The position numbers and the translations under genes are program-made. Positions 2,606 through 2,779 of a DNA stretch of 5,109 nucleotides are shown here, piece by piece. The DNA comes from a virus (lineage: Duplodnaviria > Heunggongvirae > Uroviricota > Caudoviricetes). The notes under the pieces were generated by a model. That model saw nothing but the letters and a program-made list of their open reading frames with translations. It searched no databases and was not told the origin of the DNA. Every line of letters starts with the position of its first letter. Position 1 is the first letter of the stretch. The stretch lies in IMG/VR virus record IMGVR_UViG_2695420889_000019. One strand, written 5' to 3'.

Positions 2606-2779
2606 TCATGCTGCTTTGCGACGACGAAGCTTACCCTGCTGCTCTTTACCAGAGACAGTAGCGTGAGTGAACGCATTAGGAGCAGCCTTCATCAGAACTT
2701 CAACAGCAGCACCCATACCTGCGAATGCTTTCATTGTGTCGAACTTAACCTGTGGCTTGGTTGCTTTTTGATCTTTCAT
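2606..2779 (-). CDS. Unannotated small protein (57 aa), Lys/Ala-rich with basic C-terminus RRRKAA; unknown function
   Basis: Minus-strand ATG at 2779-2777, preceded by GGGAG (rc of 2787-2791) at 7 nt spacing. Translation by hand: MKDQKATKPQVKFDTMKAFAGMGAAVEVLMKAAPNAFTHATVSGKEQQGKLRRRKAA, stop TGA at 2608-2606, directly followed by the terminator. Absent from the track, presumably under its length cutoff. Confidence 0.5.
   Translation of the reverse strand: MKDQKATKPQVKFDTMKAFAGMGAAVEVLMKAAPNAFTHATVSGKEQQGKLRRRKAA

Follow-up and report, generated by a model that had tools for sequence, protein, structure and literature searches.

A 57-amino-acid prophage protein whose gene follows that of a divergent GNAT-fold protein in a mobile two-gene phage cassette

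The window analysed here is the whole 5,109-nucleotide (nt) stretch of IMG/VR virus record IMGVR_UViG_2695420889_000019, and the element under study is a 57-amino-acid (aa) open reading frame (ORF) that runs on its minus strand from an ATG start to a TGA stop (2606..2779; translation MKDQKATKPQVKFDTMKAFAGMGAAVEVLMKAAPNAFTHATVSGKEQQGKLRRRKAA), with the start and the intact frame borne out as described in a first-pass annotation made from the letters alone. We found that this ORF is a real protein-coding gene under purifying selection in its own frame only. Our data are best explained if its product serves as the dedicated partner, encoded downstream, of a 178-aa protein with a GNAT fold (same strand, 2976..3512), and if the two genes form a mobile 'moron' cassette carried by temperate phages of Enterobacterales and Shewanella. 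The small protein belongs to the mEp460 gp24 family (PHROG 2741), and its partner, a divergent and acidic protein, to the mEp460 gp23 family (PHROG 4350). We tentatively favour the reading that the small protein is labile and neutralises or regulates the GNAT, within an accessory cassette that resembles a toxin-antitoxin pair, which we hold to be a substantial possibility rather than the probable outcome.

The coding status of the ORF was assessed in 94 homologous loci, which comprise 16 distinct DNA sequences. The gene was intact in all 94, retaining the full 174 nt, the ATG and an in-frame stop, and a purine-rich Shine-Dalgarno (SD) sequence is found 6-8 nt upstream in all copies, including those in which the upstream DNA has been swapped. 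In the annotated frame the mean ratio of nonsynonymous to synonymous substitution rates (dN/dS, Nei-Gojobori) was 0.17. Values of 1.1-1.7 were obtained for four of the five alternative frames; the last one, which is antisense, gave 0.24, yet every sequence carries one or two stops in it, so that it contains no ORF. Variable alignment columns numbered 17, 17 and 42 at the first, second and third codon positions, respectively. Frame integrity and the balance of synonymous and nonsynonymous change, the measures of conservation that the first-pass annotation had named, were therefore clearly positive. A 45-aa antisense ORF at 2663-2800 was rejected as a gene, as it has stops in divergent homologs and a dN/dS of about 1. 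If the 57-aa ORF were instead untranslated and conserved as an RNA or DNA element beside the terminator, nothing specific would point to this beyond the shortness of the ORF and the structured RNA that it adjoins, whereas the excess of third-position substitutions, the low in-frame dN/dS and the retention of length, ATG and SD in every copy all argue for translation, as do homologs that can still be identified when protein identity has dropped to about 30% and the DNA is beyond alignment. Frame integrity and dN/dS effectively refute this alternative, to which we assign a negligible likelihood.

The SD sequence of the window copy, GGGAG, is located at 2786..2790 on the minus strand, six bases (TTTTCT) before the ATG at 2779-2777; the motif had been identified correctly in the earlier annotation, and its reported distance of 7 nt reflects a counting convention. 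A hairpin terminator at 2562..2587 (inverted repeat I1) begins 18 nt beyond the TGA stop; it ends the cassette transcript and is common to the convergent PrtN/xis gene. This hairpin consists of 11 pairs, six of which are GC, and its minus-strand run of six T residues passes the terminator scan, while the plus strand offers TTTT only and falls under the scan threshold. The proposal that the ORF stops just before a bidirectional terminator thus holds for the minus strand, with bidirectional activity being plausible. The product had been described as rich in Lys and Ala with a basic RRRKAA tail, in agreement with our counts of nine Lys and 11 Ala. The label 'unannotated', on the other hand, was true of the gene track used in the first-pass annotation only. 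The ORF is already catalogued in RefSeq (WP_000654815.1) and as gp24 of mEp460 (YP_007112098.1), in both cases as a 'hypothetical protein', it is carried as a hypothetical protein in phages SKA5 and Lys8385Vzw as well, and the PHROGs profile phrog_2741, whose function is unassigned there, matches it over its entire length (E 8.1e-36, residues 1-57 aligned to all 57 profile positions). An identical 57-aa protein is encoded on at least 1,000 contigs, where the only names given are 'hypothetical' or 'phage protein'. Its 178-aa neighbour is likewise a 'hypothetical protein' in RefSeq (WP_000956557.1) and as gp23 in mEp460, and matches phrog_4350, also of unassigned function in PHROGs (E 2.3e-103, with residues 2-178 aligned to all 178 profile positions). 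Taken by itself, the ORF is an already catalogued, ordinary hypothetical prophage gene.

In every paired lineage examined, the small gene is preceded on its own strand by a homolog of the 178-aa gene, with a spacer of 79-196 nt between the two. Most of these loci had been picked via the small gene, which makes them a biased estimate of linkage, and loci were therefore re-fetched via divergent GNAT homologs. In this GNAT-selected set, 35 of the 36 distinct GNATs were followed by a same-strand ORF of the small family (hidden Markov model (HMM) E 1e-11 to 1e-33). The sole exception is found on a contig that ends 40 nt past the GNAT gene, so that all 35 assessable loci were paired and no GNAT lacking the small gene was found among them. 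The pair is maintained from Escherichia to Shewanella, even where identity has fallen to about 30% in each of the proteins, and in a comparison of 45 distinct pairs the pairwise distances of the two proteins were correlated with a Mantel r of 0.92, which was reached in 0 of 2000 permutations. These findings show that the linkage is obligate on the GNAT side and that the two proteins co-diverge.

The pair was found at six or more positions in phage genomes. In the window it is located between xis and att; in Hafnia, Franconibacter and a metagenome it lies between the Q antiterminator and the lysis genes or holin, and in another dusA-integrated prophage between int and a tail-fibre gene. It also occurs directly after a CI-type repressor, in the early region in Serratia and inside the tail module in Photorhabdus. 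The positions close to att, the repressor and Q are typical sites of accessory or defence cargo. A 1.2-kb query spanning the cassette matched 634 of 5,426 complete E. coli genomes, including those of O145, O111 and O157 pathogens, and the cassette is present also in phages of Salmonella, Enterobacter, Serratia, Photorhabdus and Shewanella. In the Hafnia phages, a RelA/SpoT-domain protein of 319-352 aa is encoded directly upstream of the GNAT-small pair within the antiterminator-lysis interval (loci L003 4150-5109, L004 4051-5109 and L005 995-1954); this protein might be an alarmone synthetase with toxic activity or the product of a defence gene resembling CapRel, and together with the pair its gene makes up a small accessory island.

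The linkage is asymmetric, since the small gene occurs without the GNAT gene in 19 E. coli loci and in phages SKA5 and Lys8385Vzw. In these GNAT-less loci the slot is filled by a 190-aa Panacea-domain (SocA-like) antitoxin gene and an overlapping gene of 139 aa, which has no Pfam match and presumably encodes the toxin of the Panacea antitoxin (L070 1-1202; L198 3707-4908; L199 3707-4908). The 57-aa gene stays 39 nt downstream of the Panacea cassette, with the recombination junction lying exactly at its SD, and in this sister lineage of the same dusA prophage its product carries the change K2E. The finding of an intact small gene with its SD behind an unrelated cassette raises the alternative that the two genes are functionally independent and travel together by adjacency, the small protein being, for example, a regulator or a host-interference peptide, and the leader of the small gene, together with a possible promoter of its own (see below), would fit with such autonomy. 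However, adjacency has been kept across about 30% identity and in at least six contexts with no partner swapping, and hitch-hiking alone is unlikely to preserve adjacency in mosaic phage genomes; we therefore regard functional independence as rather unlikely.

The AlphaFold (AF2) model of the 178-aa protein, built from a 41-sequence alignment, has a predicted local distance difference test score (pLDDT) of 90.9 and a predicted template modelling score (pTM) of 0.88. When this model was compared with the PDB using Foldseek, 203 matches were obtained at E<=1e-3, the best 50 of which were all GNAT acetyltransferases, with template modelling (TM) scores of 0.5-0.65 at a sequence identity of only 7-16%. 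The matches include Gcn5, Naa50, RimI, SpeG and a lasso-peptide acetyltransferase, as well as KacT and AtaT, which are GNAT toxins; for AtaT the target TM score is 0.65. A fold search against the predicted viral structures of BFVD recovered mainly GNAT-annotated proteins, the GNATs among them being generic, and UniRef already labels some of the homologs as GNAT family. On the basis of the model, the protein is confidently predicted to adopt a GNAT fold of a very divergent kind, and none of the 41 family members gave a Pfam or NCBIfam match at E<=10. Two residues, E100 at the end of strand 4 and Y148 in helix 4, are invariant in the alignment; these are the usual positions of the GNAT catalytic base and acid, and given their invariance the protein may possibly retain catalytic activity. 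Its isoelectric point (pI) is 4.8, within a family range of 4.2-4.9.

The small family was defined by word-indexed and exhaustive HMM searches, the latter over 1.84 billion representatives, in which the profile found 12 proteins; one of these, a 939-aa repeat protein (P0052), was dropped as an additive low-complexity artefact. According to both types of search, the family consists mostly of proteins of 53-61 aa and is limited to Enterobacterales, Shewanella and metagenomes. A 58-aa homolog in Photorhabdus (L104, about 4632-4808) is intact and has an SD and was missed by the source annotation, suggesting that the family is under-annotated outside E. coli. In 20 diverse members, with identities down to about 30%, M1, P34, E46 and G49 are invariant and G23, L29, A32 and the terminal A are near-invariant. 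The consensus is F-D-T-x-x-A-F-A-R-M-G-A-A-V-E-x-L-x-K-A-A-P ... E-x-Q-G-K, after which come a basic stretch and a final A-A, with a conserved helix at about residues 13-34 and an E46-x-x-G49 motif. The AlphaFold (AF2) model of the small protein consists of a single helix (residues 15-32) with low-confidence tails (pLDDT 63). No Pfam family was found for any of the 20 diverse members at E<=10, the window protein had no NCBIfam match, and profile searches against PDB sequences returned noise only, mostly designed repeat proteins at E 0.1-1.

The last ten residues of the small protein carry a net charge of +3 to +5 in all 20 diverse members; 17 of these proteins end in AA and three in VA, always together with the basic run. 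The C-terminal classes of ClpXP substrates include LAA-COOH (ssrA-like) and RRKKAI-COOH (MuA-like), and the C-terminus of cleaved RseA is ...VAA (PMC7857536, PMC8138137). The small protein is similar to these degrons in that a basic run is followed by small aliphatic residues at the extreme C-terminus, but differs from them in that its RRRKAA tail blends two classes and is an exact instance of neither. The first-pass annotation had proposed from the basic tail, and from that feature alone, that the protein binds nucleic acid or the ribosome; a ClpX-type tag could fit the features of the tail at least equally well. Elsewhere in the same prophage, outside the window (L001 544-747), a gene annotated as 'ClpX C4-type zinc finger protein' adjoins a LexA-family repressor; it is intriguing beside a tail that resembles a ClpX degron, and it is no part of the cassette in other phages.

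Close to the nucleic-acid or ribosome idea lies the alternative that the small basic protein is a substrate or co-effector of the GNAT, being acetylated or serving as an adaptor, such that a modified peptide would hit host nucleic acid or the ribosome. The obligate linkage and the co-divergence hold alike for this alternative, the combination of an acidic enzyme and a basic partner suggests an electrostatic enzyme-substrate pair, and among the best 50 of the 203 fold matches protein and peptide N-acetyltransferases dominate (Gcn5, Naa50, RimI and the lasso-peptide acetyltransferase). Nonetheless, the family has no invariant lysine, since K31 is replaced by A or Q and K50 by R or P in distant members, and its N-terminus is variable. 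The conservation of the terminal -AA would be left unexplained, and it would be odd for a dedicated substrate to be retained, as the small gene is, in a large E. coli lineage that lacks the GNAT. We therefore consider a substrate or co-effector role to be unlikely, while giving it real weight.

The roles of the two proteins could also be reversed, with the small protein as the toxin and the GNAT-fold protein as the antitoxin. A precedent for a small toxin with a larger antitoxin is provided by TopAI(YjhX)/YjhQ of E. coli, a validated pair in which an 85-aa toxin is neutralised by a 181-aa partner and the toxin gene comes first (PMC4666372). The cassette is similar to this pair in combining a small protein with a partner of about 180 aa, but the order of the small and large genes is opposite, as are the roles in the reading that we favour, the gap is 11 bp there compared to 79-196 nt here, and no sequence similarity and no family match to TopAI was detected. 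In addition, the small gene is present without the GNAT in many genomes and viable phages, and a degron-like tail would be unusual on a toxin, so that a reversal of roles appears highly improbable. YjhQ is acetyltransferase-like, a point that is not stated in the paper describing the pair.

The spacer between the GNAT stop and the start of the small gene is 196 nt long in the window (2780..2975, minus strand; RNA fold z-score -2.7), and its 3' half is a structured leader, such that the small gene is preceded by what is predicted to be a covarying three-hairpin leader (2791-2875, minus strand). Hairpin H2 (2850..2870; CCAATCGA / TCGATTGG with a 5-nt loop; inverted repeat I5) corresponds to RNAalifold helix 1 and is 95% paired, H3 (2825..2845; AGTTAGC / GCTAGCT) is RNAalifold helix 2 with compensatory double changes in four of its seven pairs, and stem H4 (2791..2809; GAGAC-N9-GTCTC) directly abuts the SD, all three lying on the minus strand. 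The alignment was restricted to Enterobacteriaceae, in which the last 100 nt or so before the SD can be aligned. The motif GAG(A/G)C-N6-10-GTCTC is found in all 20 distinct Enterobacteriaceae leaders, and H2 and H3 together show compensatory double changes in six of 15 pairs. With the structure fixed, 92.7% of cells pair compared to 87.1% in column shuffles (none of 500 reached the observed value), with 23 double-change cells against 6.5 expected, these being figures from related sequences and for a structure derived from those same sequences; slid registers pair in only 15-43% of cells. Where only one side of an H2 pair has changed, the outcome in the sense strand is nearly always G-U, and the same columns read as sense RNA are 92.7% paired as against 83.3% for the antisense RNA. 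In more distant clades the spacers are beyond alignment and contain other hairpins or T-runs. No Rfam family exceeded its gathering score for the leader, and the sub-threshold matches all fell on the terminator hairpin.

The first-pass annotation had also suggested that the small gene is co-transcribed with the 178-aa gene because no terminator could be seen between them. Our data are compatible with this proposal, as the terminator scan predicted no terminator-like site in the 196-nt spacer and the genes are linked, but the spacer holds the leader and maybe a promoter, so that co-transcription of the two genes is plausible and not the whole story. The candidate promoter is a TTGG(T/C)A-17/18-TAnnnT element that overlaps H2 and H3; it is conserved in Enterobacteriaceae, falls under the scan threshold, and could be a weak internal sigma-70 promoter. 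A sigma-54 promoter reading of the spacer element TGGCAT-N-TAGC was rejected because its GG-to-GC spacing is one base short, and an operator occurring both in the spacer and ahead of the GNAT gene was discarded as the palindrome at 2850-2870 is unique. The leader itself may serve in translation control, as an mRNA processing site or as a binding site for the basic small protein.

The toxin-antitoxin-like model is favoured because of the asymmetry of the linkage, the hotspot positions of the pair and the replacement of the GNAT gene by a Panacea cassette at the same slot. According to this model, the GNAT would act as the effector and, if left free, would poison the cell or arrest its growth, and the small protein would bind it via the Ala/Gly-rich helix and the E-x-x-G motif and silence it as a neutraliser or pseudo-substrate. 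The basic tail with its -AA-COOH end would make the small protein a substrate of ClpXP, so that continuous synthesis is needed, and the structured mRNA leader beside the ribosome-binding site would set its supply. In the lysogen, transcription would probably proceed from the promoter of the host gene dusA, through the dusA 5' remnant at the prophage junction, and end at the shared terminator. Physical binding, toxicity, proteolytic lability, the promoter and an anti-phage role are what we infer in this scheme.

Several observations weigh against the toxin-antitoxin-like model. The GNAT gene comes first and the putative antitoxin follows after 79-196 nt, an arrangement unlike that of known GNAT toxin systems, and the small protein has no DNA-binding domain and no match to DUF1778 or DUF4065 (20 members, E<=10). 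The small gene has been kept behind an unrelated cassette, and it could equally have a role that is independent of the GNAT. The model of the small protein is of low confidence (pLDDT 63), and the degron reading is one of resemblance in pattern, and such degron motifs were reported not to predict instability proteome-wide (PMC7857536). On the GNAT side, the protein has no sequence tie to any Pfam acetyltransferase family, its acetyl-CoA loop reads HPLKGRM as opposed to the canonical Q/R-x-x-G-x-G/A, and so acidic a GNAT fits poorly with a tRNA-binding toxin. The defence models of PADLOC-DB v2 gave no match for either protein at E<=1, and neither was mentioned in the literature searched by accession, PHROG id and peptide sequence.

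The closest systems in mode of action are the GNAT toxin systems, which are defined by an adjacent ribbon-helix-helix (RHH) antitoxin of the DUF1778 type (DUF4065 in one clade) and by membership of the GNAT-toxin sequence clade (PMC9177977). Their toxins arrest growth and acetylate aminoacyl-tRNA, and their antitoxins counter this through binding. Similar to TacAT, AtaRT, KacAT, ItaRT and the DUF4065-GNAT clade, the cassette is a two-gene mobile module with one GNAT-fold partner, its small partner is of the disordered or helical neutralising type, and the effector is never found alone. In contrast to these systems, however, its GNAT is acidic and lies outside the GNAT-toxin clade and the Pfam acetyltransferase families, its small partner has no RHH/DUF1778 or Panacea domain, and in place of a tight bicistron that usually has the antitoxin first it shows the reverse order and a structured spacer of 79-196 nt. 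Since these defining features were not found, the cassette should not be filed as such a system, even though theirs is the likest mode. Phages also carry 'moron' or lysogenic-conversion cassettes, an example being rexAB after cI in lambda. The pair is like these in being self-contained, with its own terminator, and in occupying variable sites between conserved modules; its slot is exchangeable with a toxin-antitoxin cassette and it adjoins the RelA/SpoT-domain gene in Hafnia. It differs in that no PADLOC defence model matches this pair.

The window represents the right end of a prophage that resembles mEp460 and has integrated into dusA; the region matches many E. coli chromosomes at 100% identity and phage mEp460 at 98%. 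Integration into dusA follows the model of Farrugia et al. (PMC4482086). Homology to the phage spans 1652-3763 and then stops, with host DNA beyond (3763-4122). A 5' segment of dusA of about 40 codons (MHGNSEMQKINQTS...) is located at 3638..3760 on the minus strand, as judged from its translation, from the point at which phage homology ends and from RefSeq, where a partial tRNA-dihydrouridine synthase is entered at about 3656-3760. This segment lies upstream of the GNAT/small-gene cassette, is co-directional with it and marks the region of the prophage/host junction, and its end faces into the prophage, straight toward the two cassette genes. Upstream of the remnant, in host DNA, a consensus scan in which the number of sites was at chance level picked out a weak promoter-like site, TTAACA-17-GATTAT (3933..3961, minus strand), which is a candidate for the native dusA promoter and could read into the cassette in the lysogen. 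Because the remnant points into the prophage and this site lies upstream of it, read-through from the host dusA promoter would be a reasonable route to expression of the cassette. Further into the host DNA, a DUF2713 gene (4123-5109, minus strand; Pfam E 5e-157) reaches the edge of the window and encodes 328 aa here, and its counterpart in strain 873.10 is flagged as frameshifted by RefSeq; a strong terminator-like hairpin is situated downstream of this gene at 4056-4085.

The conserved unit of a GNAT and a miniprotein, the degron-like tail and the leader were not found in the literature that we searched, and the interest of these data lies in the compact, strictly co-inherited GNAT-plus-miniprotein cassette and not in the ORF alone. 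We consider it possible, if on the doubtful side, that the cassette represents a new family of phage toxin-antitoxin or abortive-infection modules, in which a divergent GNAT would be held by a single-helix protein of 55-60 aa with a ClpXP tag and leader-tuned synthesis. Should the cassette prove to be a toxin-antitoxin or defence module, DUF1778 and Panacea would be joined by a third, independent kind of antitoxin for GNAT effectors, and the cassette would provide a simple testable case of a degron-tagged mini-antitoxin. If, on the other hand, the GNAT modifies the peptide, the pair would constitute a new phage-encoded modified-peptide effector.

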